Below the pieces are notes generated by a model, which did no database searches, was not told where the DNA came from, and worked only from the letters and a program-made list of their open reading frames with translations. From an uncultured bacterium (GTDB taxonomy: Bacteria; Fermentibacterota; Fermentibacteria; Fermentibacterales; Fermentibacteraceae): a DNA stretch of 64,000 nt. How positions within the stretch are numbered: position 1 is the first letter of the stretch; each line of letters begins with the position of its first letter. Below, in pieces: positions 1 to 53,541 of this stretch. The stretch spans positions 58,485 to 122,484 of the forward strand of contig CAZMTK010000003.1 of the NCBI GenBank assembly GCA_964569245.1. Reading direction: 5' to 3'. The position numbers and the translations under genes are program-made.

Positions 1-1062
1 GAAGGTGACCCTCGAATCCCCGGGAGTGTAGGAGACCCGGGCGGAGAACAGCCTGTCGTCAGACACGTCGTAGACCTCGAAGACCTCGGGCACGCCCGGC
101 GAGGTCCTCTTCCTGTCGTTCCTGTCGAACGAGCGAGCAAGGGTGAACTCCAGGTCCAGGTCGTCCATCATGCTCCACAGGAGCCTGCCGGAGATCCCGC
201 GAGCCCTCTCCAGCCTGTCCCTGGGGTCGCCGGCGACCGTCGTGTCGGCCGGATTGTCCCAGTAGCGGTTGTTCCAGGACCAGTCTGTCGAGACCTGGAG
301 ACTGAGGTTCTCCATCAGCGCAGGGGTCGTGATCGTGAGGCTGTGGCTCCAGTCCTGCTCGCGATGGCTGTACTGGGAGTCGGCGTAGGACGTGAAAACC
401 CGCGTCGCTCCGGCTGTAGCCTCGAGGGAGCCCCCTTCGAACCCCTCGGGGAACAGGTAGGTCATCCGAAGCACCAGGTCGTCGCTTCCGGTGTCGAACT
501 GGCGCCCGAGCGTGCGGTGCTCTCCGAGCGAGAGGCTCGTGCTCAGCCTGCTGAACACGCTCCTGCTCAGGCTGACAGAGGCGTTCCTCACCCCGCCCTC
601 GTCGTGGCCGGAGACGGTCGAGTCCCCCGATACGTTCTCGTAGTCCAGGAAGTGCGAGCCCAGCCCGATCTCGGTGCTGATCCACTGCGCCGGGCGGAAC
701 CGGACCTCCCCGGTGGCGGTGTTGTCCACCTGGTCGAGTATCGTCTCGCCGAAACGCTCCTCAGTCTGGATCGTGCGTGCGAGACTGGTGGCGATCTCGA
801 CGGATCTCGAAGGGGTCCAGCTTATCCAGGCTCTTCCGCTGCGGTTGTCGAGGAACCTGTCGAGGTCGTCGCTCCTGTCGGCGGAGAAGGTGGTGTTCAC
901 GTTCATTGCGATCTCGCCGGAGAGCTGCTGGGTGAGGAAGAGCGTGTTCGTGAGCCTCCTGGTGTTCTTGTACTGGTCAAGCGCCAGCGAGTAGGTGAGG
1001 TCGTAGGCCGGGACCGGCGCAGCCAGGGCGGCGAGAGCCGCAGCGATCAGAAGCCGCTTCAC
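1..1062 (-). CDS. Hypothetical secreted/outer-membrane protein, partial (3' end runs off the window)
   Basis: Manual minus-strand translation from a GTG at 1062..1060 gives VKRLLIAAALAALAAPVPA..., a signal-peptide-like N-terminus, then a long Ser/Thr/Asp/aromatic-rich region suggestive of a beta-barrel. The GTG overlaps the ksgA stop (GTGA). The gene is absent from the ORF track because it is truncated at the window edge. Track ORFs 59..685 and 343..1329 in this region are Arg-rich and spurious. Confidence 0.45.
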   Translation of the reverse strand, partial: MKRLLIAAALAALAAPVPAYDLTYSLALDQYKNTRRLTNTLFLTQQLSGEIAMNVNTTFSADRSDDLDRFLDNRSGRAWISWTPSRSVEIATSLARTIQTEERFGETILDQVDNTATGEVRFRPAQWISTEIGLGSHFLDYENVSGDSTVSGHDEGGVRNASVSLSRSVFSRLSTSLSLGEHRTLGRQFDTGSDDLVLRMTYLFPEGFEGGSLEATAGATRVFTSYADSQYSHREQDWSHSLTITTPALMENLSLQVSTDWSWNNRYWDNPADTTVAGDPRDRLERARGISGRLLWSMMDDLDLEFTLARSFDRNDRKRTSPGVPEVFEVYDVSDDRLFSARVSYTPGDSRVTF

Positions 1063-4491: not shown

Positions 4492-4503
4492 CTGGCCACT
4501 CTC

Positions 4504-38146: not shown

Positions 38147-38374
38147 GTGGACAAGACGATACTGGAGCTCGAGAAGGGCGAGGATCTGCTGAGGGTGGTC
38201 CTCAAGGAGTTCAGGGGCCGCCAGTACATAGACGCCAGGATGTTCTACATGTCCGAGAACGGGGAGTGGCTGCCCACGAAAAAGGGTCTTAGCATGACCC
38301 CCGAGATGGCGGCGCAGGTTTCCGAGGCGATAGGCAGGGCTCTGGCCGAGCTCGAGTCGGGAAAGAAGCCTTAG
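38147..38374 (+). CDS. PC4/p15-like ssDNA-binding protein (YdbC-like)
   Basis: RVVLKEFRGRQYIDARMFYMSENGEWLPTKKGLSMT matches the PC4 fold pattern. 75 aa, GTG start. Confidence 0.55.
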   Translation: MDKTILELEKGEDLLRVVLKEFRGRQYIDARMFYMSENGEWLPTKKGLSMTPEMAAQVSEAIGRALAELESGKKP

Positions 38375-40725: not shown

Positions 40726-40781
40726 AACAGCCCCCTCGAAGCCAGAAGACCGGCAAAAGGATGTGACCCCGCAATGCTCGC

Positions 40782-40810
40782 AGTGTATGCAGAGCAATCG
40801 CACGTGTCAA
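40782..40810 (-). promoter_or_regulatory. Sigma-70-like promoter, TTGACA-17nt-TACACT, reading toward nrdJ
   Basis: On the minus strand, TTGACA lies at 40810..40805 and TACACT at 40787..40782, with a 17-nt spacer. It sits in the divergent intergenic region between nrdJ and the ECF sigma gene. Confidence 0.45.
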
Positions 40811-40915
40811 TATGCTGGGGGTGCCCGACCCCGACCACACAACCCGTAGTTGGACCGTTCCGCACCAGGACTGCCGTTGCGCCCCGGGGCTCTGCCCCAA
40901 TAGAATACGAGCGAG

Positions 40916-41500
40916 GTGATGCGGATGCCTGGTGACCCGGCCCCTGTGAAAGACGAATTCGAGAGCGAGATCCTCCAGTTCCTCGACGGGCTCTACGGAT
41001 ACGCGTTGCACTTGTCCCGCAACAGGGACGACGCCTGCGACCTCGTGCAGGAGACCTACGCGAGGGCCTTCAGGGCTCGGAGCCAGTACCGGCTGGGAAC
41101 AAACGCGCGCGCCTGGCTGTTTGCAATACTCAGGAACACCTTCCTCAACGATCGCAGAGCCCAGGGGCGGGCTCCGAAGACCGTCCCGTGCGAATGGATC
41201 GACGAGCTGGGCGAGGGAGGCGACGGAGAGGAGCTCCCTGCGAGGAGGACCCAGGATCCCCAGAGGTGTGTCCTGAACGACATCCTCAGGGAGGACATCG
41301 ACCGGGCCCTGGAGGAGCTCCCGGAGGAGTTCAGGAGCGCCGTGGTCCTCTGCGACGTGGAGGAGATGTCGTACGCCGAGATAGCGGAGATACTCCAGAT
41401 ACCGATAGGTACCGTCAGGTCCAGGATACACAGGGGTCGGGCGATACTCAAGAGGAAGCTGAGCGACTGGCGGTCAGGCACCGGGAGGGGTGGGAGTTGA
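40916..41500 (+). CDS. ECF (group 4) RNA polymerase sigma factor
   Basis: Region 2 (LVQETYARAFRA...ARAWLFAILRN) and region 4 (SYAEIAEILQIPIGTVRSRIHRGR), 194 aa. Confidence 0.85.
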   Translation: MMRMPGDPAPVKDEFESEILQFLDGLYGYALHLSRNRDDACDLVQETYARAFRARSQYRLGTNARAWLFAILRNTFLNDRRAQGRAPKTVPCEWIDELGEGGDGEELPARRTQDPQRCVLNDILREDIDRALEELPEEFRSAVVLCDVEEMSYAEIAEILQIPIGTVRSRIHRGRAILKRKLSDWRSGTGRGGS

Positions 41501-41721
41501 GATGTTCTGATGCTGCCCGCAGGATCCACGATTACGTCTCCGGCGAGCTGGAGGGAGATGATCGGGAGAGGCTCGAGAAGCATCTCGAGACCTGCGAGGA
41601 CTGCAGGTCCTGCGTGGACGAGAACATGGCGCTCCGGAGCAGGGTGAGGGACCTCATGAGGGTTTCCGCGCCAGCTTCGCTCCGTGCCGAGGTCGTGCGC
41701 CTCTCGCAGGCGCAGGTCTGA
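41497..41721 (+). CDS. Zinc-finger (ZAS-type) anti-sigma factor, small and soluble
   Basis: 74 aa with C...H...HLETCEDC (Hx3Cx2C). TTG start overlaps the sigma stop (TTGA). No TM segment. Confidence 0.6.
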   Translation: MRCSDAARRIHDYVSGELEGDDRERLEKHLETCEDCRSCVDENMALRSRVRDLMRVSAPASLRAEVVRLSQAQV

Positions 41722-41725
41722 GGCG

Positions 41726-42199
41726 TTGCCGGGACGCGACCGGCTGCTGCCGGCAGCCCTGGCAGCCGCGTGTGCGGCGGCGCCTCCGCTTGCCGCGCTC
41801 ATTCTGTTCGGGCGTCCAGCCAGCACCATCTCCGATGCGGGCTCCCTTGCAAGGCTGGGCTGCGTGCTCGCTGCAAGCGCCGAGGCTCCCCCTGGAAGGC
41901 CGGCGCTGGACAGCCTGGCCGCGTGGGCGGGCTTCCGTCTGCCCGCCGGGGCTCTCCTGGAGCCCGGAACTTCAGGAGCGGCCTGCAGTCTCTTCCCGTT
42001 CAGGATCGCAGCCTTCTCCTTCCCTTCCGACTCCTCCGTCATGGTTCTGGTCTGCTGCCCGGTTCCCCTGGCACTTCGCGATCCGGGTCCCGGAGGGCCG
42101 AGGGTTCTGTACGGAGGCGGGAGAACTGCGGTCATCGTGCTCCCGGGCTCCGGGGATTCCGGAGCCGCCAGGGCGGCCGGATCGCTGGAGCCGGTATGA
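41726..42199 (+). CDS. Hypothetical secreted protein
   Basis: TTG start 5 nt after the anti-sigma stop, and a signal-peptide-like LLPAALAAACAAAPPLAALILF. The stop overlaps the next ATG (ATGA), which supports translation. Confidence 0.4.
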   Translation: MPGRDRLLPAALAAACAAAPPLAALILFGRPASTISDAGSLARLGCVLAASAEAPPGRPALDSLAAWAGFRLPAGALLEPGTSGAACSLFPFRIAAFSFPSDSSVMVLVCCPVPLALRDPGPGGPRVLYGGGRTAVIVLPGSGDSGAARAAGSLEPV

Positions 42200-42678
42200 C
42201 TCCGGCGCTCAGGTGGGGAGCGGCATGCCTCGCGGCCCTGCTCGCGTGCTGCTGCTCGAAGGGGGGAGGAGATGCCGCCCTGGAGCAGGCGCCGCCTGCG
42301 CCCCCGTCGCTTCCGGGAAGGTTGTTCGCCCCCGACGGAACTCCGGCGGAGGTGTCGGCTGATTCCGCGATAGTGCTGTACCTCTGGCTGCCGCTGCCGG
42401 GACATCCCGGGCCGGAGTCCGACCTCGAAGCCATAGCCGAAACAGGGACGGCCGGCAACGTGGCGGCCTTCGCAGTTCAGACCAGCCCGGCCGCGAGGAA
42501 CTCCGCACAGGAGCAGGTCAACTCCCTCGGAATAGTGCTCCCCGTCTTCCTCGCCGATTCGGCGGCAGCCAGATGCATCCCTCCAGGAGATCTCCCGGTG
42601 GCCGTGCTCTTCGGACCAGGCGGCTCTACGGAAGTGGAGACGGGATTCGGCGCTGTGGAGCGCCTGCTCTCGAAGTGA
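42196..42678 (+). CDS. Thioredoxin-fold (TlpA/ResA-like) lipoprotein lacking the CxxC active site
   Basis: Lipobox LLACC. The redoxin-like layout places VLYLW-LPLPGHP where WCxPC would be, followed by VAAFAVQTS...LGIVLPVFLAD...LPVAVLFGPGGS. Confidence 0.5.
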   Translation: MTPALRWGAACLAALLACCCSKGGGDAALEQAPPAPPSLPGRLFAPDGTPAEVSADSAIVLYLWLPLPGHPGPESDLEAIAETGTAGNVAAFAVQTSPAARNSAQEQVNSLGIVLPVFLADSAAARCIPPGDLPVAVLFGPGGSTEVETGFGAVERLLSK

Positions 42679-43475
42679 GCCTGGAGCTGGCTCCCGGCTG
42701 CAGGCCGTTCATCGCGGTGTCAGACATCCACCTCTTCCCGGAGGAGAAGCCCCATCCGGGCAGAGAGGGCTTTCTGTCCTTCCTCGGGGAGATCGCCCGG
42801 GCCAGTCCCGGCGAACTCTGGATCGTGGGAGACCTGTTCGATTTCTGGCACGAGAGGCGTGGAGCGCCCCCCGGCTTCTCCAGGGTCCTCGCAGCGCTGG
42901 CGACGGCATCCGGTGCCGGCTGGAGCGTGACGTTCCTGCCGGGGAACCACGACATGTGGGTGGGCGAAGCCTTCTCCGCGGCGACAGGCGCCAGGGTCCT
43001 GGATCGGGGGCCGGTCGAGGTCCTCGTCGAGGGCAGGAGGGTCCTGCTGGCGCACGGCGACGGACTCGGAAGGGGGGACTGGGGCTACAAGCTCCTCCTG
43101 GGGCCGTTCCTGAAGTCCGGTGTCGCGAGAGCGCTGTTCCGGGCCCTGCCGACGGGCGCCGGCGGGTTCCTCGCGGAGCTCGCGTCGGGCACCAGCCGAC
43201 GCATCCTCAGGAGGCAGTCCGACGTCGTCCCCCGGCACCTGCGCGCGTGGGCAGACGGGATGATCCGCTCAGGGATGGACATTGTGATAACAGGGCACTC
43301 TCACGTGGCAGGGGCCAGGTCCGCCGGAGGAGGGCTCCACATCTCCCTGGGAGACTGGCTCGGCGACTTCCACTACGCATCCTCCGATCCCTCCCTCGGC
43401 CTGCGCCTGGTCCGCTACGAAGCCCCCGGCATCCGGCCAGCAGGACCGCTCGTTGACCCGGGCACGGCAGGGTGA
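42675..43475 (+). CDS. LpxH-like metallophosphoesterase (UDP-2,3-diacylglucosamine pyrophosphatase family)
   Basis: IAVSDIHL, GDLFDFWH, GNHD, GHSH. The GTG start overlaps the upstream stop (GTGA). Confidence 0.6.
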   Translation: MSLELAPGCRPFIAVSDIHLFPEEKPHPGREGFLSFLGEIARASPGELWIVGDLFDFWHERRGAPPGFSRVLAALATASGAGWSVTFLPGNHDMWVGEAFSAATGARVLDRGPVEVLVEGRRVLLAHGDGLGRGDWGYKLLLGPFLKSGVARALFRALPTGAGGFLAELASGTSRRILRRQSDVVPRHLRAWADGMIRSGMDIVITGHSHVAGARSAGGGLHISLGDWLGDFHYASSDPSLGLRLVRYEAPGIRPAGPLVDPGTAG

Positions 43476-44448
43476 GATTTTCGCCTCCATGGAAGCAGGC
43501 GGAGGAATGCTGCTGAGCGTGGTCGTTCCGGCCTTCAACGAGGCCGAGAGCATTCCCGAGCTGGTAGCAGAGACTGCCGGCGCGCTCTCGGGTCGCGAGT
43601 GGGAGATGGTGATCGTAGATGACGGGAGCACCGACTCCACATGGGAAGAGATCCGCAGGGCGGCCTCCGCCTACCCCGTCACGGGCCTCAGGTTCGGGAG
43701 GAACCACGGAAAGGCCGCAGCGCTCTCGGCCGGCTTCGCCGCCGCCGGAGGGGCGATCATCGCGACGATGGACGCCGATCTCCAGGACGATCCGGCGGAG
43801 ATCCCCGCGATGGCCGATATGCTCGCAGAGTCGGGCCTTGGCGTAGTGAGCGGATGGAAGAAGGAGCGCAGGGACCCTCCGTCGAAGAGGCTCCCCTCCA
43901 AGTTCTTCAACGCCGTTGTGCGCCGCGCCACCGGGATACCCCTGCACGACTTCAATTGCGGACTCAAGGTGTACCGTGCCGAGGCGGCCAGACGCATGGA
44001 CCTGTATGGAGAGATGCACAGGTACACCCCCGTGCTGGTGTCCCAGCTTGGCTGGACAGCCGGGGAGAAGCCCGTCAACCACAGGCCGAGAATGCACGGA
44101 CGCAGCAAGTACGGCCCGGCGAGGTTCTTCCGAGGATACGCCGACCTTCTCACGGTGCTCTTCCTGCACCGCTACTCGTTCAGGCCTCTGCACTTCTTCG
44201 GAGGGATCGGCACGACGCTCTTCGCCGGAGGGCTGGGCATCTCCATCTACCTCACCATCCTCAAGATCGCAACCGGGGCCTCGATCGGCAGGAGGCCCCT
44301 CCTCCTCCTGGGCGTGTTCCTCATGATGATAGGATTCCAGTTCGTCTCGCTCGGCCTTCTCGGCGAGATGCAGCTCCGCCTGCTGCCCGGGAAGAGGCTC
44401 TACACGGTGGTGGAGACCGCGGGGCGCCCGACCGGCTCGGGGACATGA
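43453..44448 (+). CDS. GT2 polyprenyl-phosphate glycosyltransferase (DPM1/GtrB/ArnC-like)
   Basis: VVVPAFNE, DDGSTD, DAD motifs and two C-terminal TM helices. The true start may be M13 or M19, at 43489 or 43507. Confidence 0.8.
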   Translation: MTRARQGEIFASMEAGGGMLLSVVVPAFNEAESIPELVAETAGALSGREWEMVIVDDGSTDSTWEEIRRAASAYPVTGLRFGRNHGKAAALSAGFAAAGGAIIATMDADLQDDPAEIPAMADMLAESGLGVVSGWKKERRDPPSKRLPSKFFNAVVRRATGIPLHDFNCGLKVYRAEAARRMDLYGEMHRYTPVLVSQLGWTAGEKPVNHRPRMHGRSKYGPARFFRGYADLLTVLFLHRYSFRPLHFFGGIGTTLFAGGLGISIYLTILKIATGASIGRRPLLLLGVFLMMIGFQFVSLGLLGEMQLRLLPGKRLYTVVETAGRPTGSGT

Positions 44449-45551
44449 GGCTCATCGCCGCCGGCCCGTTCCCTCCTCACAGGGGCGGGATCTCCCAGTT
44501 CGGCATGAGGCTCGCCGACGCCCTGGAGGCCCGCGTTCAGGTGCTCAGGGCCGGGTTCTCGCGGCTCTATCCCCGCGCGCTCTTCCCCGGTGTCTCCCAG
44601 TTCGATCCGGCTGGCGGGGCCAGGGTGGCCACAGTCGCGACGATGGATTCCTGCAGCCCGCCGTCATGGCGTCGAACGAGGCGGGAGCTGTCCCGCCTCG
44701 GCGCCGATGCGGCAGTGGTCCAGTGGTGGCACCCGTTCTTCGCCCCCGCCCTGCACTGGAGCCTGCCCTCCGCGGGCGCGGTGCGCAGGGCGGCGGTCTG
44801 CCACAACATCCATCCCCACGAGGGCTTCCCGATGGGCAGGGCTCTGGCGAAGTGGTTCCTCGGAAAGGCGGAGGTCCTTGTCGTGCACAGCGCAGCCGAC
44901 GAGGAGAGGGCGCGGGCGCTGCTGCCCCGCGCCAGGCTCCTGAGGCTGTTCCACCCGGTCTACGACCAGTACCTGGCCTTCGACCGCGGCAGGGGCTCCG
45001 CGAGGAGCGCACTCGGCTACGGCGAGAGCGAGAGAGTCATCCTCTTCTTCGGGCTCGTGCGCCCCTACAAGGGGGTGGAGGATCTTGTCGAAGCCTTCCG
45101 GGAGATGCCTGGAGACTGCAAGCTGCTTCTCGCAGGAGAGTGCTACTCCGGCGCGGAGCCGATCAGGAAGGCGCTCGAGGGGACAGGCATCGCCCCCAGG
45201 GCTCGATGGGACGAGCGCTTCATTCCCGATGCCGAGGTCTGGGCCTACTTCAGGGCGGCCGACCTCGTAGTCCTGCCGTACAGGAGCGCCACCCAGAGCG
45301 GCGTTGCCCAGATAGCCGTCTCATTCGGCAGGCCCATGGTCCTCACGAGGACCGGCGGGCTGCCGGAGCTGATAGACGAGGGGCGAACAGGCTTCCTGGC
45401 CGAGCCCTGCTCGCCTGGAAGCCTCGCGGCAGCAATGAGGAGAGCGCTGGAGCTTCCGCAGGGAGCGGAGATGGAGGGCCGCGTGGCGCAGGTGGCGGCG
45501 AGGTTCTGCTGGGATCGCTATGCAGATTCCCTGCTGGAGGCGATCCTTTGA
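44445..45551 (+). CDS. GT4 (GT-B fold, family-1-like) glycosyltransferase
   Basis: C-terminal FGRPMVLTRTGGLPELI...GFL (EX7E region). The ATG overlaps the GT2 stop (ATGA). Confidence 0.75.
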   Translation: MRLIAAGPFPPHRGGISQFGMRLADALEARVQVLRAGFSRLYPRALFPGVSQFDPAGGARVATVATMDSCSPPSWRRTRRELSRLGADAAVVQWWHPFFAPALHWSLPSAGAVRRAAVCHNIHPHEGFPMGRALAKWFLGKAEVLVVHSAADEERARALLPRARLLRLFHPVYDQYLAFDRGRGSARSALGYGESERVILFFGLVRPYKGVEDLVEAFREMPGDCKLLLAGECYSGAEPIRKALEGTGIAPRARWDERFIPDAEVWAYFRAADLVVLPYRSATQSGVAQIAVSFGRPMVLTRTGGLPELIDEGRTGFLAEPCSPGSLAAAMRRALELPQGAEMEGRVAQVAARFCWDRYADSLLEAIL

Positions 45552-46441
45552 AGGTGTTCGTCGCCGGTGCGGGAGGCTTCGTCGGAGGCGCAGTCGCGGC
45601 TCTTCTCGAGAGCGCGGGTCACGAGGTCGCCGCTCACGTCCGCTCCCGCGACGGCGACGTCCGTCCCGGGTCGGTTCCATCGGATACCGGCCTGGTGGTC
45701 AATTCCGCCGGACGGCTTGGCGGGGCCGGAGTGGACGAGGCTGCGCTGGATGCCGGCAACGTCTCTCCTGCAAGAGTGCTGGCTCACGAGGCGGCTCGGC
45801 TCGGGATCCCTGTCGTGCATCTCGGCACGCCGGGCGTCGCAGGCCTCGTGGCAGGCGCCTCCGAGGACCTGCCGCCGGCCCCCTGGGGCGCCTACGAGCG
45901 ATCGAAGGCGCGTGCCGAGGAGATCCTCCGCTCGATCGTGCCCGAGGGAAGGCTCACGATACTGAGACCCGATTTCGTCTACGGCCCGGGCGACGTCCAC
46001 AAGGCCGCACTGTTCAGGCAGGCGGCGAAGGGCTGGTTCCCCCTGGTAGGAACTGGAGGGGCCAGGATAAGGCCCACCTATGTCCTCGATGTAGCGAGGG
46101 CCTGCATGGAGTCCATGCCGGGGGGGAGGCTCGAGGGCGGCGTCTTCCACATAGGCGGGCCGGAGGTCGTCACGGTGTCGGAGCTGATAGCGGCCGTAGG
46201 CAGGGCACTGGGAAGGCGCGTACTGCGCATTCCCGTGCCAAGGGCGGCGTTCCGCGCGGCGATCGCACTGGGGCTCTTCAGGGGAGTGCTGTCCGAGAGC
46301 CGGTATCTGCTGTTCGGGAGGGACCACTTCGTCTCCATCGAAAAGGCGTCCTCGGCCGGCTTCGTTCCCGGCACGGATCTGGCGCGGGGGCTGGAGGCCG
46401 CGGTGTCCTGGCTCAGAGCCGAAGGCATGGTGACGCGTTGA
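45548..46441 (+). CDS. NAD-dependent epimerase/dehydratase (SDR family)
   Basis: (M)KVFVAGAGGFVGG Rossmann motif and YERSKARAE (YxxxK). The TTG start overlaps the GT4 stop (TTGA). Confidence 0.8.
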   Translation: MKVFVAGAGGFVGGAVAALLESAGHEVAAHVRSRDGDVRPGSVPSDTGLVVNSAGRLGGAGVDEAALDAGNVSPARVLAHEAARLGIPVVHLGTPGVAGLVAGASEDLPPAPWGAYERSKARAEEILRSIVPEGRLTILRPDFVYGPGDVHKAALFRQAAKGWFPLVGTGGARIRPTYVLDVARACMESMPGGRLEGGVFHIGGPEVVTVSELIAAVGRALGRRVLRIPVPRAAFRAAIALGLFRGVLSESRYLLFGRDHFVSIEKASSAGFVPGTDLARGLEAAVSWLRAEGMVTR

Positions 46442-47394
46442 GCGCCTGGAGCAGGAACTTGATCGTGCGCTGGGCATCCAGGGCTGTTCTCGCAGTGCTG
46501 GTGCTCTTCGCTCTAGCTTCGGTGGCTGCGAGGTGGAGTGAGATCTCCGGTTCGTTCGAGAGGGTGAGCTGGTCTCCGGATCCGCTTGCACTCGCCGCTT
46601 CGGCGGTGATCCTGGCTGCATCGCTTGCATTCAATCCATTCGGCTGGATGATGCTCGCGAGAGAGCTGGGATCGGACACGTCCGCCGCCGGGCTGAGGGC
46701 TGCGTGGTTCGCCAGCCAGCTCGGAAGATACATGCCCGGCAAGATCTGGCTCTTCGCGGGCAGGATCGGGTTCCTGAGGAGCGAAGGGCTCTCCACTGCG
46801 CGCGCAGTCGCTGCCTCGGTCTGGGAGCTGGTCGCGGGCGCTGCGGCGGCAGGCGCCGTGGCCCTGCCCTGCATGCTGCTCTCCGGCGCCACGGACATCG
46901 CCCCTGCTGTGAGGACCGCAGCCACGGCGGCAGCCGCGGCGATGTTCCTGCTGCCCCTGCTGGGCCCCGTCCAGAAGGCTGCGTTCGCTCTGAAGGGCAG
47001 GTCCGCCTTCACGGGGATCCGGACTTCGGCAGGGCTGAGGGTGGCGGGCCTCTTCTGCACCCTCTGGGTGGCTCGCGGGCTCTCCCTCTACCTGTGGCTC
47101 ACCGGGCTGGGGCTGGAGACCCGCGGGTTCTGGCCCGTCATGGCTGCCGCGCCGCTGTCGTGGCTCGCGGGGTATATTGTCTTCGTAGTTCCCGGAGGCA
47201 TCGGCGTGAGGGAGACCGTGACGGCTGTGCTGGCGGCCCCTCCCGGCACGGCCGGCCCCGTTGTGGCCGCCTGCCTTTGCCAGACGGCGCTCATGGCCGT
47301 TCTCGAGATCCTTCTGGCGCTTCCCGCCTTCAGGGCGGCTCCTGGAGTCCGCGACACAGCGAAAGGCGGAGCAGATGGTGCGGATTCAGGCTGA
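46438..47394 (+). CDS. UPF0104 / lysylphosphatidylglycerol-synthase-TM (flippase-like) family membrane protein
   Basis: Multi-TM, with GRYMPGKIWLFAGRIGF and VVPGGIGVRET, which match my recollection of PF03706. The TTG start overlaps the epimerase stop (TTGA). Confidence 0.55.
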   Translation: MSAWSRNLIVRWASRAVLAVLVLFALASVAARWSEISGSFERVSWSPDPLALAASAVILAASLAFNPFGWMMLARELGSDTSAAGLRAAWFASQLGRYMPGKIWLFAGRIGFLRSEGLSTARAVAASVWELVAGAAAAGAVALPCMLLSGATDIAPAVRTAATAAAAAMFLLPLLGPVQKAAFALKGRSAFTGIRTSAGLRVAGLFCTLWVARGLSLYLWLTGLGLETRGFWPVMAAAPLSWLAGYIVFVVPGGIGVRETVTAVLAAPPGTAGPVVAACLCQTALMAVLEILLALPAFRAAPGVRDTAKGGADGADSG

Positions 47395-49651
47395 TCGAGG
47401 GAGCTGGCTGGCAGCGCTGGGTCTCATGGCTGCCCTGTCGGCTGCTGTGTACTGGAGCGTCCTGTCGTCCCCGCGCCTTCCGGGGGGCGATCTCAGCGAC
47501 ACCGTCCACCAGGGCTACCCCTTTCTCCAGTTCACAAGGCAGGCTCTCCTCGAATGGCGCCTGCCCCACTGGAATCCCTTCATCTATTGCGGAATCCCCT
47601 TCTACTCCTCGTTCTCCGCCCCTGTCACGTATCCGATCCGGGGCGCACTCCTGCTCGCAGGAGCCGAGGCTGCGGTCCGATTCCTCTTTCCCGTGCACCT
47701 CGTCATCGGAGGCATGTCGGCCTGGCTTCTCCTGGGGGCTGTGGGCGTGTCCCGCCAGGGGAGGCTGGCGGGTGCCCTCGCCTTCGCAGCCGGCGCCTGG
47801 GCGAACACCCTGTTCTATGCGGGGCATGGCAGCAAGATCATCTGCTGGAGCTACCTCCCCCTCCTGCTGTTCGCCTGCGAGCGATGGCTCGCCACCAGGC
47901 GGCTCTGGTTCGCAGCCCTGGGAGGCCTGTGCTTCGGCATGCAGGCGCTCTCGAGCCATCCCCAGATGCTGCTCTACAGCGGCATGGCCGCCCTCCTGTG
48001 GTCAGCGGCGAGGTCCCTGCAGTCGCGCTGCCTGCGGACGGCGGCGGCCGCCGCCGGCGGCCTGGCGCTCATGACCGTCCTCGGGCTCTCGGTCGGAGCT
48101 GTGCAGCTTCTTCCGGGGTATGATTTCTCCAGGTACTCCAGCCGGGGTGAGAACCTGTCGCTGGACCAGTCGCAGAGCTACTCCCTGCCGCCCGAGGAGA
48201 CGCTCGTCATGGTCTTCCCCCGCCTGTTCGGCTACAGGCACGGCTTCGCCGACAGCTCCGCCGGGGGCATCCCGCTCTACTGGGGGAGGCTCGGTCTGAG
48301 GCTCTCCAGCGAGTTCACCGGGGTCTCGGTAGCGCTTCTCGCGCTGATCGGCCTGCTCGCCGGGAGGTCGGCCTGCCGATGGCCCCTGCTCGCGATCCTG
48401 GTCACGGGGCTAGTCGTCTCGTGGGGCGGCTATACCCCCGTCTATTCTCTCCTCTACCGGCTGGTGCCGCTCTTCAGGAAGCTCAGGGCCCCCCACATGG
48501 CGGCGTTCCTCAGCACGTCGGCTCTCTCGCTGATGGCCGGCCCGGGCTTCGACGCGCTCCTCGCGAAAGGGGGCCGATCGTGGAAGGCGGCCCTCGTCTT
48601 CTCTGCATCGTGCCTGGTCGCCTTCATTGCGGCAGGCCCTATCGTGGAGAGCCTCCAGGCGGGATGGTGGGATAGGGCGGGGGTCGCCCCCTCCGACTGG
48701 ATCGTACAGCGGCGCATAGACATGGCTGCTGGTGACTTCCTGCGTGCCTGCGTCTCGGCCGCCTTGGTCGGGCTCGCCGGGCTGCTGGCCTCGAGGGGCA
48801 GGCTGACCCCGGGCGGCGCGCTGGTGCCTGCGCTCTTGCTCATGTCGCTGGAGCTCGTCCCGGTAGACAGGGATTTCCAGGTTTTCCTGCCGGACACCAG
48901 AATCGAGTCTGTGTGTCCGGACTATTCCCGGCTGGCCGCCGCCGCCGGCGGTGGGAGGGTTCTCCCTGGCGGAAACGAGATGATCCCGTCAGGAGTGCTG
49001 TCGGTCGCCGGGTATCACGCGGCGAGAACGCAGGCCAACGACGACATGCTGGAGCTTGTCTCCGGCGGCGGGCTGGCCGGGGCGAGGCTCACAGCCTTCA
49101 CGGTGCTCTTCGAGTCCGGCGTCGTAGTACCCTACGACTCGCTGATAGCGGCTGTCTCCGGAGGCCCGGGCGGCGTGCCGGAGGGGCTCGAGAGACCGCA
49201 GCCGAGAGTCTTCCTGGCGTCGGACTGGGCGGTGGATCCTGCATCGGCCGGGGGCTCCTTCGATCCCGGCGGCCCCCCGCCGGAGAGGCTCACGGTGCTG
49301 GACAGGGATCCCGGCATCCCGCACGGCGGCGACTCCTCCGGAACGGCCCGGATGGTTGCGGACCTGCCCGAGCTGGTCGTCGTGGAGACCTGCGCGGGCT
49401 CTCCCTCCATACTGGTCCTCGCCGACACCTGGTATCCCCGGTGGCGCGCCGAGGTCGACGGCGTCGAGACACCCCTTCTCAGGGCCAACTGCTGGCAGAG
49501 GGGCGTGGCCGTGCCTGCAGGGGAGCACACAGTGAGCTTCAGGTTCGACCATTCGGACGTGGGAATCGGCGCCCTCGCCAGCGTGACCGGGATCGCCCTG
49601 ACTGCGGGGATCGGCCTCCTCGAGCTGCTCTCGCGCCGCAGGAGGGCCTGA
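47375..49651 (+). CDS. YfhO-like large polytopic membrane protein (putative GT-C glycosyltransferase) with a C-terminal extracytoplasmic domain
   Basis: About 758 aa. The N-terminal roughly 550 aa hold many TM helices, and the C-terminal roughly 200 aa are soluble. Size, topology and the operon partners (GT2 plus flippase-like) fit YfhO/GT-C. Confidence 0.45.
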   Translation: MVRIQADRGSWLAALGLMAALSAAVYWSVLSSPRLPGGDLSDTVHQGYPFLQFTRQALLEWRLPHWNPFIYCGIPFYSSFSAPVTYPIRGALLLAGAEAAVRFLFPVHLVIGGMSAWLLLGAVGVSRQGRLAGALAFAAGAWANTLFYAGHGSKIICWSYLPLLLFACERWLATRRLWFAALGGLCFGMQALSSHPQMLLYSGMAALLWSAARSLQSRCLRTAAAAAGGLALMTVLGLSVGAVQLLPGYDFSRYSSRGENLSLDQSQSYSLPPEETLVMVFPRLFGYRHGFADSSAGGIPLYWGRLGLRLSSEFTGVSVALLALIGLLAGRSACRWPLLAILVTGLVVSWGGYTPVYSLLYRLVPLFRKLRAPHMAAFLSTSALSLMAGPGFDALLAKGGRSWKAALVFSASCLVAFIAAGPIVESLQAGWWDRAGVAPSDWIVQRRIDMAAGDFLRACVSAALVGLAGLLASRGRLTPGGALVPALLLMSLELVPVDRDFQVFLPDTRIESVCPDYSRLAAAAGGGRVLPGGNEMIPSGVLSVAGYHAARTQANDDMLELVSGGGLAGARLTAFTVLFESGVVVPYDSLIAAVSGGPGGVPEGLERPQPRVFLASDWAVDPASAGGSFDPGGPPPERLTVLDRDPGIPHGGDSSGTARMVADLPELVVVETCAGSPSILVLADTWYPRWRAEVDGVETPLLRANCWQRGVAVPAGEHTVSFRFDHSDVGIGALASVTGIALTAGIGLLELLSRRRRA

Positions 49652-49654
49652 AGA

Positions 49655-51790
49655 GTGGCGAGAAGAAAGGCTGCGGAGGCCGCCGCCGCCTGGCTGGGCG
49701 TGCTGCTGACCGCGGCTGCCGCGGCCGTCTTCGCGTTCGTCCTGTGGCCTTCGTGGAAGCCCCGGGTCGAGGCGTTCTTCTCGGGATTCGACCCCCTCGC
49801 GCGCTGGCCCCTGATAGCGCTCTCCGTGCTGTCCGCCCTGCTGAGCCAGGCGTTCGCGCCCTGCGCGTGGCAGAGGGTGCTCCGGGCGCTGTCCCTGCCC
49901 GGCTCGCACGGTTCCGACTCGAAGCGCAACTGGTACGTGACGCAGATGGGCAGCTACATCCCGGGGAAGTTCTGGATGTACATCGGGAGGGCGGCCTTCC
50001 TCGGCGCGCGCGGCGCCGGCGGCGCGAAGAGCAGCGCGGCCATCGCCCTGGAGAACATCTACCTCATGGTGTCGGTATGCCTCATGGCGCTGGTCGCTAT
50101 ACCCTTCACCGGCGGCACCCGCATGCCCGGGGGAGTCAGGGCAGCGCTCGCAGTCTCAATGGGAGCCACGCTCCTGGCGCTTCTTGCGCCCGGCATCAGG
50201 AGGGGGCTGGCGGCGCTGATCACGAGGAGGCCCGGCGGGGACCCCGGCGTACTGCCGGAGCTCTCCCTGGGCAGCCAGGCTGTCATGATAGGGTTCGACA
50301 TGCTCTCCTGGACCTTCAGGGGCGCTTCGCTCTTCTTCTGGTTCCTCGCGGCGGGTGCGGGCGCTGGCAGAGAGGTCCAGATGCTCTCCGTCTGCCTGCT
50401 GGCCATGCCCGTCTCCTGGCTCGCGGCACTGCTCCTCGTGATCGTGCCCGGGGGCATCGGTCTGCGCGAGTCCATCCAGGGGGTTCTTCTGCAGGAGTTC
50501 GCAGGAGCGTCTCTGGCCGTCGCCACTACCATCGCCCTCTCTCACAGGATCGTGCTCATCGTCTCCGAGGGAGTCTTCGCGGCCGGCGCGCTCGTCCTCG
50601 ACGGCCTCTGGAAGAGGCGCCCCTCGATGATGAGACATCTCCGCCAGTCGGCGAGGCTCGCGGCGTGCCTCCTGCGCGCCAGGCTGTTCATGATGGGCGT
50701 CGGGACCCCGCCGCCCCCTGTGAATCTCACCTTCTCGGTCACGAGGAGGTGCCAGTCGCGCTGCCGGACCTGCTACATCTGGAAGGCCCCTCCCCTCGAG
50801 GAGCTGTCGCTGGCGGAGATAGAGGCGCTCTTCCGGGAGATCGGCTGGACCTACTTCTTCAACGTCTCGGGCGGCGAGCCCTTCCTGCGGGACGACCTGC
50901 CGGAGATCGTGGGCCTCGCCTGCAGACACCTCGATCCCGCCGTCATCCACATCCCCACGAACGCCCTCCTGCCCGCTAGGATCGAGTCCATGACCGCCGA
51001 GATGCTGGAGATCGTCGCCCGCGAGGCGCCTGGAGCCGCGCTCACGATAAAGCCCTCCTTCGACGGGGTCGGGGACCTGCATGACGAGGTGCGGGGGGTC
51101 CCCGGCAACTTCGCCAGGCTCCTCGACACCCTCGAGAGGCTCCTGGCCCTGCGGGAGCGCCACCCCGAGCTGCATGTCGGAGTGGGCACGGTGATCTCCC
51201 GCGAGAACGCCGGAAGGCTCGGCGAGATCATGGAGTTCGCCGGCAGCCTCGGCGTGGACACCTACATCAACGAGATCGCCGAGGAGCGGGAGGAGTTCTT
51301 CAACCGCGGCTCAGGAATAACGCCCGACCCGGACACCTACCGCAGGATCATGCTCGGCTTCAAGGCAGCCGCCGTTGACAGGATGCGGAGCATGAAGCTC
51401 CTCGGGCGGATCACCACCGCGCTAAGGATCGTCTATTACGACCTTGTAGTGAGGATCATGCAGGAGAAGCGCCAGGTGATACCGTGCTACGCGGGAATAC
51501 TGAACGCCCACATCAACGCCGACGGAGCCCTCTGGCCCTGCGCGATAAGAGCCTACGGCTCCGAGATGGGGAGGGCGGGGCGAGAGGGCGGCTTCGCCGG
51601 AGCGTGGAAGTCCGAAAGGGCCCGCGCGATCAGGCGCTCGATCAGGAGGGGGGAGTGCGGCTGCCCGCTCGCCAACCAGGCCTATTCCAACATCCTCATG
51701 CATGCGCCAAGCCTTCTCCGCGCAGCCCGCACTGCGCTGTTCCCGGGCAGGGCCTCCGCGCGGTCTCCCCGGCAGGAAGGAGCAGGATGA
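49655..51790 (+). CDS. Fusion of a UPF0104/LPG-synthase-TM flippase-like membrane domain and a radical SAM/SPASM enzyme
   Basis: Residues 1-340 are paralogous to the gene at 46438 (SYIPGKFWMYIGRAAF, IVPGGIGLRESI). Residues 350-711 carry radical SAM motifs CQSRCRTC (CxxxCxxC), SGGEPFL and IPTNALL. A Cys-rich SPASM-like tail follows (PCYAG...WPC...ECGCP). Confidence 0.7.
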   Translation: MARRKAAEAAAAWLGVLLTAAAAAVFAFVLWPSWKPRVEAFFSGFDPLARWPLIALSVLSALLSQAFAPCAWQRVLRALSLPGSHGSDSKRNWYVTQMGSYIPGKFWMYIGRAAFLGARGAGGAKSSAAIALENIYLMVSVCLMALVAIPFTGGTRMPGGVRAALAVSMGATLLALLAPGIRRGLAALITRRPGGDPGVLPELSLGSQAVMIGFDMLSWTFRGASLFFWFLAAGAGAGREVQMLSVCLLAMPVSWLAALLLVIVPGGIGLRESIQGVLLQEFAGASLAVATTIALSHRIVLIVSEGVFAAGALVLDGLWKRRPSMMRHLRQSARLAACLLRARLFMMGVGTPPPPVNLTFSVTRRCQSRCRTCYIWKAPPLEELSLAEIEALFREIGWTYFFNVSGGEPFLRDDLPEIVGLACRHLDPAVIHIPTNALLPARIESMTAEMLEIVAREAPGAALTIKPSFDGVGDLHDEVRGVPGNFARLLDTLERLLALRERHPELHVGVGTVISRENAGRLGEIMEFAGSLGVDTYINEIAEEREEFFNRGSGITPDPDTYRRIMLGFKAAAVDRMRSMKLLGRITTALRIVYYDLVVRIMQEKRQVIPCYAGILNAHINADGALWPCAIRAYGSEMGRAGREGGFAGAWKSERARAIRRSIRRGECGCPLANQAYSNILMHAPSLLRAARTALFPGRASARSPRQEGAG

Positions 51791-52503
51791 AGCTTCTCGA
51801 GATGACGACCCACGACTTCGCGAGGCTGGAACCCTCGCTCGCCTTCCTCCCCCTCGGTACGGTGGAGGCGCACGACCTCGGCCCGCTGGGAACCGACGCA
51901 GTCGCACCCGAGCGCATAGCCTGCGACCTGGCGGGCAGGTTCGGGGCGGTCGTGCTCCCCACCATGCCATACGGGCTCGTACGCTCTCTGGCCGGCCACC
52001 CCGGCGGCATGTGGCTCACGGAGGATACCTACAGGGCCGTGGTGCTGGAGCTGATAGGCTCGATATCCCTCTCGGGCGTCTCCAGGCTGGTCGTCTTCAA
52101 CGGGCACGGCGGCAACACCGGCGTCCTCAGGGAGGTCCTGCCGGAGGCAGTGGAGAGATACGGGACGATGACGGCTCTGGTTGACTGGTGGGTCGCGGGG
52201 GGCGACATCGCACGGAGGCTCTTCGGCGGCGCCGCCGGGCACGGGGGCTCTGACGAGCTCTCGGTCGTCTTCTCGGACAGGCTGGACATGCTGCCGGAGT
52301 GGGACGGAAGCAGGTCGTGGAGGGCGGTCGAAGGGGCGTGGGCGTGGCCCGCCCCAAGGTCATCGATCAGGTACGACGACGAACCTGCAAGACCCCTCGA
52401 GCGGGGCGCGGCGGCCGAATACTACAGACTCCTGCTGGAGAGGCTGGAAGTGACGGTCGAGGGCATCCTGTCCGGCTGGGACTCGATCCCGCGCATCACC
52501 TGA
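51787..52503 (+). CDS. Creatininase-family (creatinine amidohydrolase/MftE/ArfB-fold) hydrolase
   Basis: LAFLPLGTVEAHDLGPLGTDAV and VFNGHGGN signatures. The ATG overlaps the radical SAM stop (ATGA). Confidence 0.8.
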   Translation: MKLLEMTTHDFARLEPSLAFLPLGTVEAHDLGPLGTDAVAPERIACDLAGRFGAVVLPTMPYGLVRSLAGHPGGMWLTEDTYRAVVLELIGSISLSGVSRLVVFNGHGGNTGVLREVLPEAVERYGTMTALVDWWVAGGDIARRLFGGAAGHGGSDELSVVFSDRLDMLPEWDGSRSWRAVEGAWAWPAPRSSIRYDDEPARPLERGAAAEYYRLLLERLEVTVEGILSGWDSIPRIT

Positions 52504-53161
52504 TCCTCTCCACCCCCCCGGGCACCGGGCGCAGGATGGCGGACGGGAGGGAGGGGGGCAGTCTCCCGCCGTCCAGCACGAGATCCACTCCTGCGATCAC
52601 CCCTTCGTCCACCTCGTCCACCGACAGAGCGGGTGCGCCGGCGGAGGTGTTCGCGCTAGAGGACACGAGCGGCCTTCGGGCGAGCCTCAGCAGCATCCTG
52701 CTGAGCGGATCGGCGGGAACCCTGAGGGCGACGGTCCCGTCGGGAGCCTGGACCCAGGAGGGGCAGGCGGGGCTGGATGGGAGCACCACGCTGACAGGGC
52801 CGGGCCACCATCGTGCCAGGCTGTCCATGACTTCGTCCCCCGGAGGCATGGCCAGCTCCAGGGCTGCATCCGCATCCATCCCCACCACCACGAACGGTCG
52901 CGGCAGAGAGCACCCCTTGAGCGCCGCCAGCCTCTCGGCAGCCTTCCTGTCCCGGACCGAGCAGCAGATCCCGTAGACTGTGTCCGACGGATACAAGACG
53001 ATGCCCCCCGAACGGATCGCTGCAGCCGCACGCGATACGGGCGCCTCTTCGGGCGCCTCCCGGGAAACCGGCAGCGTCCTGCCCGTCAGATGCCCCTTGC
53101 AGCCCGGACGCGGCCGGCTAGAGCAGGATCGGAGAGCGCCAGGATCTCCGCGGCGAGCCAT
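52496..53161 (-). CDS. tsaC: L-threonylcarbamoyladenylate synthase TsaC/YrdC/Sua5 family
   Basis: GGIVLYPSDTVYGIC and VSSSANTSAGAP motifs. The start is uncertain: the track ATG at 53161 overlaps the purE 3' end by 76 nt, and a start after the purE stop would have to be non-ATG. Confidence 0.65.
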   Translation of the reverse strand: MARRGDPGALRSCSSRPRPGCKGHLTGRTLPVSREAPEEAPVSRAAAAIRSGGIVLYPSDTVYGICCSVRDRKAAERLAALKGCSLPRPFVVVGMDADAALELAMPPGDEVMDSLARWWPGPVSVVLPSSPACPSWVQAPDGTVALRVPADPLSRMLLRLARRPLVSSSANTSAGAPALSVDEVDEGVIAGVDLVLDGGRLPPSLPSAILRPVPGGVERIR

Positions 53162-53541
53162 GCAGCGTTCCTGGCCCCGTGGGAGCCTATGGCGACCGCA
53201 GCCACCGGGATGCCCTTCGGCATCTGAACAGTGGAGAGGAGCGCGTCGAGACCGCCGAGAGTGCCCCCCGCGAGGGGGACTCCGACGACGGGCAGAATGG
53301 TCCTTGATGCGACAGCCCCGGCGAGGTGCGCAGCAAGCCCCGCGCCTGCGATGAGAACCCTGATGCCCCTGCCCTCCGCCTCCCCTGCGTAGCGGGCGAC
53401 CAGGTCGGGGTTCCTGTGGGCTGACATGACCGAGACCTCGCAGGGGACCCCCAGCTCCTCGAGGACGGTTCTGGCCTGGTCCATCGTCTCCCTGTCGCTC
53501 TCGCTGCCCATGAGTATTCCGACCAGCGGATGATCACTCAT
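53086..53541 (-). CDS. purE: N5-carboxyaminoimidazole ribonucleotide mutase
   Basis: VGILMGSESD, the SAHR motif and GAGLAAHLAG. 151 aa; the ATG overlaps the purD stop (ATGA). Confidence 0.9.
   Translation of the reverse strand: MSDHPLVGILMGSESDRETMDQARTVLEELGVPCEVSVMSAHRNPDLVARYAGEAEGRGIRVLIAGAGLAAHLAGAVASRTILPVVGVPLAGGTLGGLDALLSTVQMPKGIPVAAVAIGSHGARNAAWLAAEILALSDPALAGRVRAARGI

Follow-up and report, generated by a model that had tools for sequence, protein, structure and literature searches.

The DNA analysed here, a 64,000-nucleotide stretch referred to as the window, comes from an uncultured bacterium of the family Fermentibacteraceae (contig CAZMTK010000003.1) and carries an operon of twelve genes, g1 to g12, at positions 40916-52503. 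The operon is conserved across Fermentibacterota, and its core, g3-g11, probably encodes an elaborated three-component pathway for glycosylating the cell envelope with polyprenyl-phosphate-linked sugars. The core includes g11, in which a flippase-like membrane domain is fused to a radical SAM domain, and this fusion, together with the orphan, glycan-associated radical SAM family to which g11 belongs, is genuinely new. No description of the cluster or of this radical SAM family was found in the literature, the searches of which likewise returned no radical SAM enzyme tied to three-component lipid-linked glycosylation, and the June 2026 release of NCBIfam holds no specific model for the family.

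Three-component lipid-linked glycosylation is a general means by which bacteria decorate lipopolysaccharide (LPS), teichoic acids and other envelope polymers, and it bears on recognition by phages, antibiotics and the immune system. The present analysis identifies a large, uncharacterized radical SAM family persistently linked to GT2, GT4, short-chain dehydrogenase/reductase (SDR), flippase and GT-C genes across Bacteria and Archaea. It offers enzymology a concrete substrate hypothesis for this orphan family, and glycobiology a candidate oxygen-independent tailoring step.

Operon architecture

At a G+C content of about 68%, the window yields raw lists of open reading frames (ORFs) that are full of spurious frames; the gene model was built from codon-position GC profiling together with start and stop mapping. 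Independent gene calls on a public contig of 100% identity give the same twelve genes, the sole difference being a start of the sigma factor gene at ATG 40925. The twelve consecutive + strand genes of the preliminary description are confirmed. The same description held nearly all junctions to be overlaps of 1-4 nt, which is slightly overstated. Start/stop overlaps of 4 nt occur at 7 of the 11 junctions, reading TTGA at three (g1/g2, g7/g8 and g8/g9), ATGA at three (g3/g4, g6/g7 and g11/g12) and GTGA at one (g4/g5). The others are a 4-nt gap (g2/g3), a 20-nt overlap (g9/g10), a 3-nt gap (g10/g11) and, at g5/g6, either a 23-nt overlap or a 13-nt gap, depending on the choice of g6 start.

Promoter space is absent at every junction of the block, and the layout bears out the tightly coupled operon that had been proposed. 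A generic scan of 40500-53300 detected no internal promoter- or terminator-like sites beyond shuffle expectation; its single promoter-like site lies on the - strand and belongs to the neighbouring ribonucleotide reductase gene, and terminator-like sites occur at shuffle level. The block is bounded by this divergent class II ribonucleotide reductase gene (RNR; 38371-40725, - strand) and by a convergent Sua5/YrdC gene. Pfam and NCBIfam searches agree with the labels first given to g1, g2, g5, g6, g7, g8, g11 and g12.

The probable glycosylation backbone

The three gene types of a three-component system, a GT2 lipid-sugar synthase, a flippase-like protein and a GT-C enzyme, are all present and co-conserved. 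The first is g6 (43453-44448, + strand; start possibly at ATG 43489 or 43507), an ArnC/GtrB-type GT2 polyprenyl-phosphate sugar synthase that matches Glycos_transf_2 (PF00535) with 105 bits. Its residues 21-310 align to ArnC residues 10-298, the full length of the protein (1e-48), GtrB (sll0501) is matched at 1e-21, and C-terminal transmembrane helices lie at residues 252-270 and 283-301. Judged by these sequence features, g6 belongs with the ArnC/GtrB/DPMS-type polyprenyl-phosphate glycosyltransferases; its score against the ArnC equivalog is 167 bits, under the cutoff of 529.

The flippase candidates are the N-terminal half of g11, described below, and its paralogue g9 (46438-47394, + strand), a UPF0104/MprF-flippase-like polytopic membrane protein with about 8 transmembrane helices. 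Its Pfam match to LPG_synthase_TM (PF03706; 25.5 bits) falls under the cutoff of 33.4. The UPF0104 assignment of g9 is nevertheless sustained by 31% identity to g11 residues 33-278 (E 2e-23), a domain whose structural model matches MprF, with a GxYxPGKxW motif shared between the two.

The third component, g10 (47375-49651, + strand; 758 aa), is a YfhO-like glycosyltransferase of the GT-C fold. It has no Pfam match even at E<5 and no match in the PDB by sequence search. Its AlphaFold2 model (predicted local distance difference test, pLDDT, 86.8; predicted template-modelling score, pTM, 0.89) retrieves GT-C enzymes as all of the top 21 Foldseek PDB matches (AftD, ArnT, STT3, AftA, PglB, AglB and PMT; probability 0.97-1.00). 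A periplasmic beta-sandwich domain and a C-terminal transmembrane helix are also present. D42 shows no variation across 31 sequences; it belongs to a fully conserved stretch that follows directly on the first helix, and its position is probably that of the GT-C catalytic aspartate. On the model, g10 would thus combine a polytopic N-terminal module with an acidic residue in the first extracytoplasmic loop, as expected of the GT-C fold. The YfhO family (PF09586) is precomputed on about one third of g10 orthologues, g10 itself being under threshold, and a homologue from Armatimonadota (25% identity) scores 54.3 bits against the YfhO cutoff of 28.5. With this bridging homologue and the fold-level match, the label of a YfhO-like GT-C protein stands, and g10 is best described as a divergent relative of the YfhO family.

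Two further enzymes accompany the backbone. The soluble GT4 glycosyltransferase g7 (44445-45551, + strand), of the GT-B fold, matches Glyco_trans_1_4 (79 bits) and Glycos_transf_1 (67 bits), and its nearest solved relatives, both distant, are MshA (8e-15) and BshA (3e-11). The product of g8 (45548-46441, + strand) is an extended SDR, a putative epimerase or reductase for a sugar or lipid-linked sugar, with intact GxxGxxG and YxxxK motifs and matches to Epimerase (60 bits) and RmlD_sub_bind (48 bits). Its best NCBIfam matches, HpnA and OleD, are weak, and the nearest PDB sequences are the membrane-peripheral NDUFA9 39-kDa SDR subunits (6e-12). Tailoring of a lipid-linked sugar, as first suggested for this operon, agrees with these gene products, which read as an envelope glycosylation or tailoring pathway.

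The flippase-like/radical SAM fusion and its family

The fusion noted at the outset for g11 (49655-51790, + strand) is confirmed by Pfam and NCBIfam. The N-terminal half (49655-50674) is recognized as an MprF-type flippase domain/UPF0104 (PF03706), and its model matches MprF. The C-terminal half (50675-51790) matches radical SAM PF04055 with 49.9 bits against a cutoff of 29.5 and retains C366, C370 and C373 invariantly, in a CX3CX2C arrangement. The SPASM family (PF13186) is matched with 21.2 bits against a cutoff of 21.5, and the domain is called on most orthologues. Just four further cysteines are invariant in the radical SAM domain, which fits one auxiliary cluster of the twitch or partial SPASM type. 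The domain is predicted to be cytoplasmic. Its top structural neighbour is BlsE, a sugar-acting enzyme. The sugar-acting twitch/SPASM enzymes BlsE, DesII, BtrN and AprD4 differ from g11, however, in sharing only 12-18% identity with it and in using soluble nucleoside- or aminoglycoside-linked substrates in antibiotic pathways. The fusion to a flippase-like domain points to a lipid-linked substrate for the radical SAM domain of g11.

Metagenomic contigs encode proteins 99-100% identical to g11 and g10, and a metagenome-assembled genome labelled 'Candidatus Fermentibacteria bacterium' encodes versions of 87% identity. The named sources of the full-length g10 and g11 relatives listed are Fermentibacter, Aegiribacteria and Sabulitectum, and the rest come from metagenomic contigs. 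The radical SAM half alone reaches much further. It is 46-54% identical to stand-alone soluble proteins of about 390 aa; a genome scan found relatives in 578 matched stretches, from many bacterial and archaeal phyla and more than 570 species genomes, and an exhaustive profile-free search gave 302 radical SAM clusters (50% identity) at E <= 1e-30.

Polysaccharide loci are the setting of the stand-alone genes. In the 26 loci where the radical SAM ORF was recovered, its surroundings to a distance of 6 kb include a g7-like GT4 in 15 cases (at about 30-41% identity), a g8-like SDR and a large polytopic protein in 10 each, a Wzx-type flippase in 9 and a g6-like GT2 in 8. Gene order is often that of the window (GT2, GT4, SDR, flippase, radical SAM, large membrane protein), and such loci also hold pyruvyl transferases, methyltransferases and uridine diphosphate (UDP)-sugar dehydrogenases. 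Because dehydrogenase genes of this kind occur in some of them, one testable possibility for the chemistry is that a uronic acid is decarboxylated as by BlsE. Distant UPF0104-radical SAM fusions, of 38-40% identity, were found in two further loci, L088 (5490-8605) and L089 (743-4182); in both, a g10 homologue of about 30% identity comes next, overlapping the fusion gene by 4 nt, and in L088 the fusion is preceded by FabA-like dehydratase and AMP-binding genes, a different pathway context. These two pairs and the stand-alone loci make the link between radical SAM and GT-C, and its glycan context, independent of Fermentibacterota gene order.

In other fusions within the family (the set P0387, P0289, P0265 and P0338), the partner of the radical SAM domain is a WecG/TagA glycosyltransferase (172 bits), a ferredoxin-reductase-type flavin adenine dinucleotide domain or a membrane domain that weakly matches the GT-C-like PTPS_related. 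WecG/TagA enzymes act on lipid-linked acceptors, and that fusion, like the weak GT-C-like one, agrees with the pathway proposed below. One member of this set is interrupted by an intein.

Conservation of the operon

Within the phylum, 49 Fermentibacterota loci were sampled, the gene counts in several high-GC loci resting on tblastn. Synteny of g4-g11 extends to every locus of sufficient length, L010 and L038, both rearranged, being the exceptions, and a g3-like ORF ending at the g4 start is present in 23 of the 26 loci examined, including a clade that lacks the sigma factor. The genes g3-g11 form the conserved core of the operon. This synteny, the g3-like ORFs and the recurrence of the module in other phyla support the co-conservation that had been claimed. 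A part of the synteny does reflect gene order at the phylum level.

The two exceptional loci, from Aegiribacteria, lack g1-g7. They carry a gene of the GT9 heptosyltransferase family and a GT4 gene, divergent from g8-g11 and located upstream at about 2600-5613; a MetW-like methyltransferase gene lies still further upstream, in the orientation of g8-g11. The GT9 gene beside g8-g11 hints at the LPS core as a target.

Proposed pathway

The host phylum is described as diderm, LPS-bearing and strictly fermentative (PMC5030696). The results above show the gene structure, the homologies, the folds and the co-conservation; the substrates, the order of steps, the membrane topology and the regulation are those we infer from homology and gene context. 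Synthesis would begin at the cytoplasmic face, where g6 may load polyprenyl phosphate with the sugar moiety of a nucleotide sugar. The radical SAM domain of g11, probably with the SDR g8, would then alter the lipid-linked sugar at the same face, candidate chemistries being radical oxidation, decarboxylation, epimerization or deoxygenation. The MprF-like transmembrane domain of g11, its paralogue g9 or both could move the product to the outer leaflet, and g10 would transfer the sugar to a periplasmic envelope acceptor, which in an LPS-bearing diderm is most likely LPS (lipid A-core) or another glycolipid. As a guess, g7 and g5 might make or process a second intermediate, linked to a nucleotide or to a lipid pyrophosphate, or else the acceptor; LpxH and UpsH suggest by analogy that g5 could cleave a pyrophosphate linked to a lipid or a nucleotide. 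The membrane-anchored g3 and the lipoprotein g4 are guessed to be periplasmic accessories.

A bolder and more tentative version, which we favour considerably less than the general pathway, makes g11 a membrane-embedded 'modify-and-flip' machine of MprF-like build. It would perform oxygen-independent radical chemistry on a polyprenyl-phosphate-linked sugar, move the product with its own flippase domain and hand it over to a dedicated YfhO-like GT-C enzyme. If this is true, the soluble relatives would represent a widespread, unrecognized anaerobic route for diversifying lipid-linked sugar donors, a route that in Fermentibacterota would be wired to a redox-sensing sigma/anti-sigma pair.

Several points weigh against the glycosylation pathway as proposed. 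None of the twelve proteins (0/12) reaches an equivalog-level NCBIfam cutoff, and the TM-scores of g10 to GT-C structures are modest (0.24-0.45). The peptide-modifying enzymes SkfB, anSME and SuiB appear at scores similar to that of BlsE among the radical SAM structural neighbours. Outside MprF, flippase activity of UPF0104 domains is presumed. A GT4, an LpxH-like enzyme and a radical SAM enzyme are not among the requirements of a classical three-component system, so the roles given to these are guesses. The flanking genes RNR, Sua5 and purD are syntenic in Fermentibacterota too, which makes in-phylum synteny alone weak evidence of function.

Comparison with known systems

The operon was first described as no known system, yet its backbone matches the CsbB/GtcA/YfhO and ArnC/ArnEF/ArnT three-component systems. 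In CsbB-GtcA-YfhO, which glycosylates teichoic acids in B. subtilis and Listeria, a GT2 makes the polyprenyl-phosphate sugar, a flippase moves it and the GT-C enzyme YfhO transfers the sugar outside the membrane (PMC11898649). The operon likewise has a GT2 with C-terminal transmembrane helices, flippase candidates and a YfhO-like GT-C. Polyprenyl-phosphate-sugar glycosylation is also known to be linked to an ECF (extracytoplasmic function) sigma factor, SigM of B. subtilis, where CsbB overexpressed without YfhO depletes undecaprenyl phosphate and activates SigM (PMC11898649). In contrast to that system, the flippase candidates are UPF0104/MprF-like rather than GtcA; radical SAM, SDR, GT4, LpxH-like, lipoprotein and small membrane protein genes are added; the host is diderm; the sigma and anti-sigma factors lie inside the operon; and g10 falls under the Pfam YfhO threshold.

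The Arn (PmrHFIJKLM) pathway, which adds aminoarabinose to lipid A, provides the closest characterized homologue of g6, ArnC. In that pathway ArnD alters the lipid-linked sugar at the cytoplasmic face before flipping by ArnE/F and transfer by the GT-C enzyme ArnT, and the SDR step is that of ArnA. The operon differs in that g6 remains far below the ArnC cutoff, in that it contains no homologues of ArnA, ArnB, ArnD, ArnE or ArnF, and in that the tailoring enzyme is a radical SAM protein; Arn is moreover under two-component systems and not under an ECF sigma and zinc-binding anti-sigma pair. The difference from MprF lies in the catalytic domain of g11, which is a radical SAM/partial SPASM domain instead of an aminoacyl-tRNA-dependent synthase, and in its presumed cargo, a polyprenyl-phosphate sugar instead of an aminoacyl phospholipid, flipping itself being predicted. 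By analogy, the operon would join the Arn-like logic of tailoring before flipping with the MprF-like architecture of making and flipping.

An auxiliary epimerase that diversifies a polyprenyl-phosphate sugar before GT-C transfer also has counterparts, in three-component pentofuranose systems and in mycobacterial DprE1/DprE2. In Citrobacter youngae O2, for example, which sugar a three-component system transfers is determined by the SDR epimerase ORF13 (PMC11127046). The donors in those systems, however, derive from phosphoribosyl pyrophosphate via UbiA-like synthases, the flippases are of the MATE type and no radical SAM enzyme takes part.

Accessory, phosphoesterase and tail genes

The metallophosphoesterase g5 (42675-43475, + strand) is a predicted lipid-linked pyrophosphatase of the cytoplasm. 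It matches Pfam Metallophos and scores 82.3 and 76.2 bits against two LpxH models with cutoffs of 134 and 190, so that neither equivalog assignment is reached. Its PDB homologues are LpxH only (2e-17), with an alignment that extends through the lid region, and with the Pfam match they bear out its description as LpxH-like. Fold and lid are thus common to g5 and LpxH. The canonical metallophosphoesterase motif GNHD (g5 residues 89-92; window 42942-42953) is present in g5 and in 31/31 orthologues, in contrast to GNRD, the LpxH hallmark, which is what the solved LpxH sequences have. The retention of GNHD alongside the LpxH lid suggests a distinct LpxH-like subfamily. A lipid-pyrophosphate hydrolase in an operon of this kind also finds a plausible analogy in UpsH (YpbG), a SigM-controlled metallophosphoesterase that frees undecaprenyl phosphate from undecaprenyl-diphosphate-linked intermediates (PMC11898649).

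The small protein g3 (41726-42199, + strand) has one N-terminal hydrophobic helix and is membrane-anchored or secreted; no Pfam or NCBIfam family matches it, even at E up to 5, and g3-type ORFs share a conserved LF(R/G)xPAxT motif after the helix. The product of g4 (42196-42678, + strand) is a periplasmic lipoprotein, probably of thioredoxin-like fold and without a CxxC motif. Pfam and NCBIfam again give nothing significant up to E of 5. Invariant residues are the lipobox cysteine C20 and Y62, W64, P66, R101, N102, Q105, L133 and P134, and WLPL stands where ResA presumably has WCEPC. A profile search of PDB sequences returned thioredoxin-fold proteins (ResA and others) as 12 of 12 matches, at non-significant E values of 0.1-1.5. 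Of the CxxC-less redoxin-fold lipoprotein first described, the fold depends on matches that are weak but uniformly thioredoxin-fold.

The last gene, g12 (51787-52503, + strand), encodes a creatininase-fold amidohydrolase (Creatininase, PF02633; 112 bits against a cutoff of 31.3) that does not reach the creatininase, MftE or IolN equivalogs. It follows g11 only in the five closest loci (L001, L020, L024, L025 and L047), and relatives of 50-56% identity are found in the unrelated neighbourhoods of L090 and L091. Its function is therefore probably its own and unrelated to the operon. Membership of g12 in the pathway is doubtful, as it appears to be a late, clade-specific addition, and the twelve-gene pathway originally envisaged is not borne out. 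A role for g12 as an ArnD-like deacylase of the lipid-linked sugar was considered and is undermined by the same clade-restricted presence and unrelated contexts. In L090 the g12 relative adjoins an RmuC gene and a weak KNTase_C match; in L091 it adjoins Vut_1, a queuosine-precursor transporter family, and a gene for a class I aminoacyl-tRNA synthetase, likely leucyl. One close relative is annotated as coming from a candidate division WOR-3 bacterium.

The sigma/anti-sigma pair and regulation

The ECF-type sigma factor g1 (GTG 40916, or ATG 40925, to 41500, + strand; 191-194 aa) matches Sigma70_r2 (51 bits) and Sigma70_r4_2 (70 bits), with no region 3 match, as in ECF (group 4) sigma-70 factors. 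It passes the ECF superfamily model TIGR02937 (84.1 bits; cutoff 42.9), in agreement with the ECF sigma reported at the head of the operon, and its best specific NCBIfam model is SigH_actino (TIGR02947), at 159.2 bits under the equivalog cutoff of 251.55. The product of g2 (41497-41721, + strand; 74 aa) is a soluble, RsrA-like zinc-binding anti-sigma factor (ZAS). It matches zf-HC2 (PF13490) with 45.1 bits against a cutoff of 22.2, has no transmembrane segment and scores 43.4 bits against the RsrA equivalog TIGR03988 (cutoff 62.5). The zinc ligands C3...H29-x3-C33-x2-C36 are kept in 22/22 aligned orthologues, all of about 74 aa. The soluble Hx3Cx2C anti-sigma factor of the preliminary description is accordingly an RsrA-type ZAS with all four ligands conserved, and we take its Cys...His-x3-Cys-x2-Cys spacing to be RsrA-like. 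The pair resembles the actinobacterial SigR-RsrA and SigH-RshA in combining an ECF sigma factor whose best model is SigH_actino with a small soluble ZAS. Unlike SigR-RsrA, both proteins are under their equivalog cutoffs and belong to a different phylum, and redox sensing is presumed from the likeness. Going by sequence, a redox-sensing role of g2 is plausible in a strict anaerobe with an oxygen-labile radical SAM enzyme in the same operon.

The pair heads the operon in 22 loci, where g1 orthologues from three named genera share 52-95% identity; in a 23rd, part of g2 is preserved where the locus ends. It is absent from a clade of 5 loci, each with at least 2.3 kb of upstream sequence, in which g3-g11 are kept and RNR is directly divergent from g3. 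In the window, a sigma-70-like promoter candidate, TTGCGC-18 nt-TAGAAT, was read directly from the sequence at 40877-40906 (+ strand). Its end is separated by 9 nt from GTG 40916 and by 18 nt from ATG 40925, and for translation from the latter the GAGG at 40913-40916 could serve as ribosome-binding site. The pattern TTGSSN-16..18-TA[GA]NNT, derived post hoc and counted over loci that are related to one another, recurs in 23 of 27 orthologous loci, among them 5/5 of the sigma-less ones, no more than 110 nt ahead of the first gene of the operon; shuffles gave a mean of 0.58 and a maximum of 4. An exhaustive search for 4-mer dyads (spacers 15-20, 110 nt upstream of g1, 22 loci) found no ECF-type motif common to the loci and clade-specific sigma-70-like elements only. 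The SigR-type promoter consensus, GGAAT-N18-GTT, was not seen by eye in the window's sequence upstream of g1. 'AAC...CGT' candidates for an ECF promoter, also picked by eye, were dropped, their 20-nt spacers being too long.

The idea that the ECF sigma leads its own pathway is not supported by these results. The promoter is sigma-70-like, the same type precedes the operon in every pair-less locus, and no ECF motif is shared; control of the pathway by g1 is therefore unproven, and the pair is dispensable. We infer that a housekeeping-type promoter drives g1-g2 together with the pathway genes behind them, and that the pathway does not need the pair. One explanation, to which we give somewhat less than an even chance, is that the pair is a positional passenger, a SigR/RsrA-like thiol/redox module whose regulon lies elsewhere and which was inserted between a housekeeping promoter and constitutively expressed glycosylation genes. 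This concerns regulation only and is compatible with the glycosylation pathway. The loci in which g3-g11 directly face RNR, the constancy of the promoter type with or without the pair and the dyad search all speak for it, as does the 4-nt g2/g3 gap, which leaves no space for an internal promoter. That same gap also couples g2 to g3, so induced transcription of the sigma gene would raise the pathway too, and the pair has kept its exact position in 22 loci. ECF sigmas often autoregulate, and the post hoc promoter pattern could itself be recognized by this one; the promoter at 40877-40906 could still be g1's own. The pair could add a redox-responsive feed-forward to the pathway. Of lesser weight than the radical SAM family, it may, as far as the sequence goes, connect redox stress with envelope decoration in a strict anaerobe.

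The intergenic region between RNR and g1 contains two NrdR-box-like 16-mers, acgtgtcaatatgctg and cacacaacccgtagtt (40802-40851, + coordinates), whose starts lie 34 nt apart (32 nt in L004). The first overlaps the -35 element of the sole - strand sigma-70-like promoter (40810..40782), upstream of the class II RNR. Clearer versions (e.g. TATCAATATTTTGTGC ... CTACTACAGGTTGTAC) are kept in most sigma-containing loci and were not seen in the five sigma-less loci. The two palindromes resemble the NrdR box consensus and belong with the divergent RNR gene.

Alternative readings of the pathway

The closest competitor to a dedicated lipid-linked glycosylation pathway is synthesis of lipid A and the LPS core proper, with g5 as the housekeeping LpxH and the glycosyltransferases building or decorating lipid A-core. 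LpxH is the sole solved homologue of g5, aligned through the LpxH-specific lid, the phylum is reported to have LPS (PMC5030696), the variant loci place g8-g11 next to a gene of the GT9 heptosyltransferase family, and g6 has as its nearest relative ArnC, an enzyme of lipid A modification. The reading is nonetheless unlikely. The g5 scores lie well under both LpxH cutoffs, GNHD replaces GNRD in all 31 orthologues, no LpxA-, LpxC-, LpxD-, LpxB- or LpxK-like gene is found among the operon's twelve, and neither the g8-g11 variant loci nor any of the clusters outside the phylum have g5. A sugar substrate for g11 is, in turn, preferred over a membrane lipid. Under the latter proposal the radical SAM domain would act on a phospholipid or the polyprenyl chain, as GDGT/MAS enzymes do, and the fused domain would flip the modified lipid in the way MprF flips lysyl-phosphatidylglycerol. 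We regard it as quite improbable, given that the stand-alone relatives are soluble and lie in polysaccharide loci with Wzx, pyruvyl transferase and glycosyltransferase genes, that one family member is fused to a WecG/TagA glycosyltransferase, that the persistent partner of the radical SAM enzyme is a GT-C glycosyltransferase, and that BlsE, its top structural neighbour, acts on a sugar.

Hardly credible are a cluster for peptide maturation, mycofactocin-like or other, made up of a radical SAM/SPASM enzyme, a creatininase-family peptidase and a GT2, and a low-molecular-weight thiol pathway in which an MshA/BshA-like GT4 and an amidase are placed under a SigR/RsrA-like pair. They draw on the RsrA-like character of the pair and on weak NCBIfam matches to MftC (3e-10), MftE (6e-12), MftF (9e-14), MshA (3e-18) and BshA (2e-12). 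Those scores are far under the cutoffs (MftC 39.9 against 265, MftE 45.6 against 172, MftF 51.1 against 280, MshA 66 against 462), and no MftA-, MftB-, MftD-, BshC- or MshC-like genes occur among the twelve. In addition, g12 is absent from most orthologous operons, and in polysaccharide loci g7-like GT4s accompany GT2, SDR and radical SAM genes. The equivalog scores and the missing partner genes effectively refute both the mycofactocin and the thiol versions.

Neighbouring features of the window

A small PC4-like (PF02229) ORF at 38147-38374 (+ strand) adjoins the 3' end of the RNR gene. An Rfam scan of the 64-kb window at gathering thresholds gave one match only, a tRNA gene at 8246-8327 (- strand), far from the operon. 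Downstream, on the - strand at 55602-58933, the gene calls from the identical public contig place a second envelope-related group of genes, consisting of a PAP2 phosphatase (55602-56501), an NlpC/P60 peptidase (56740-57261) and a DUF6311 polytopic protein (57344-58933).

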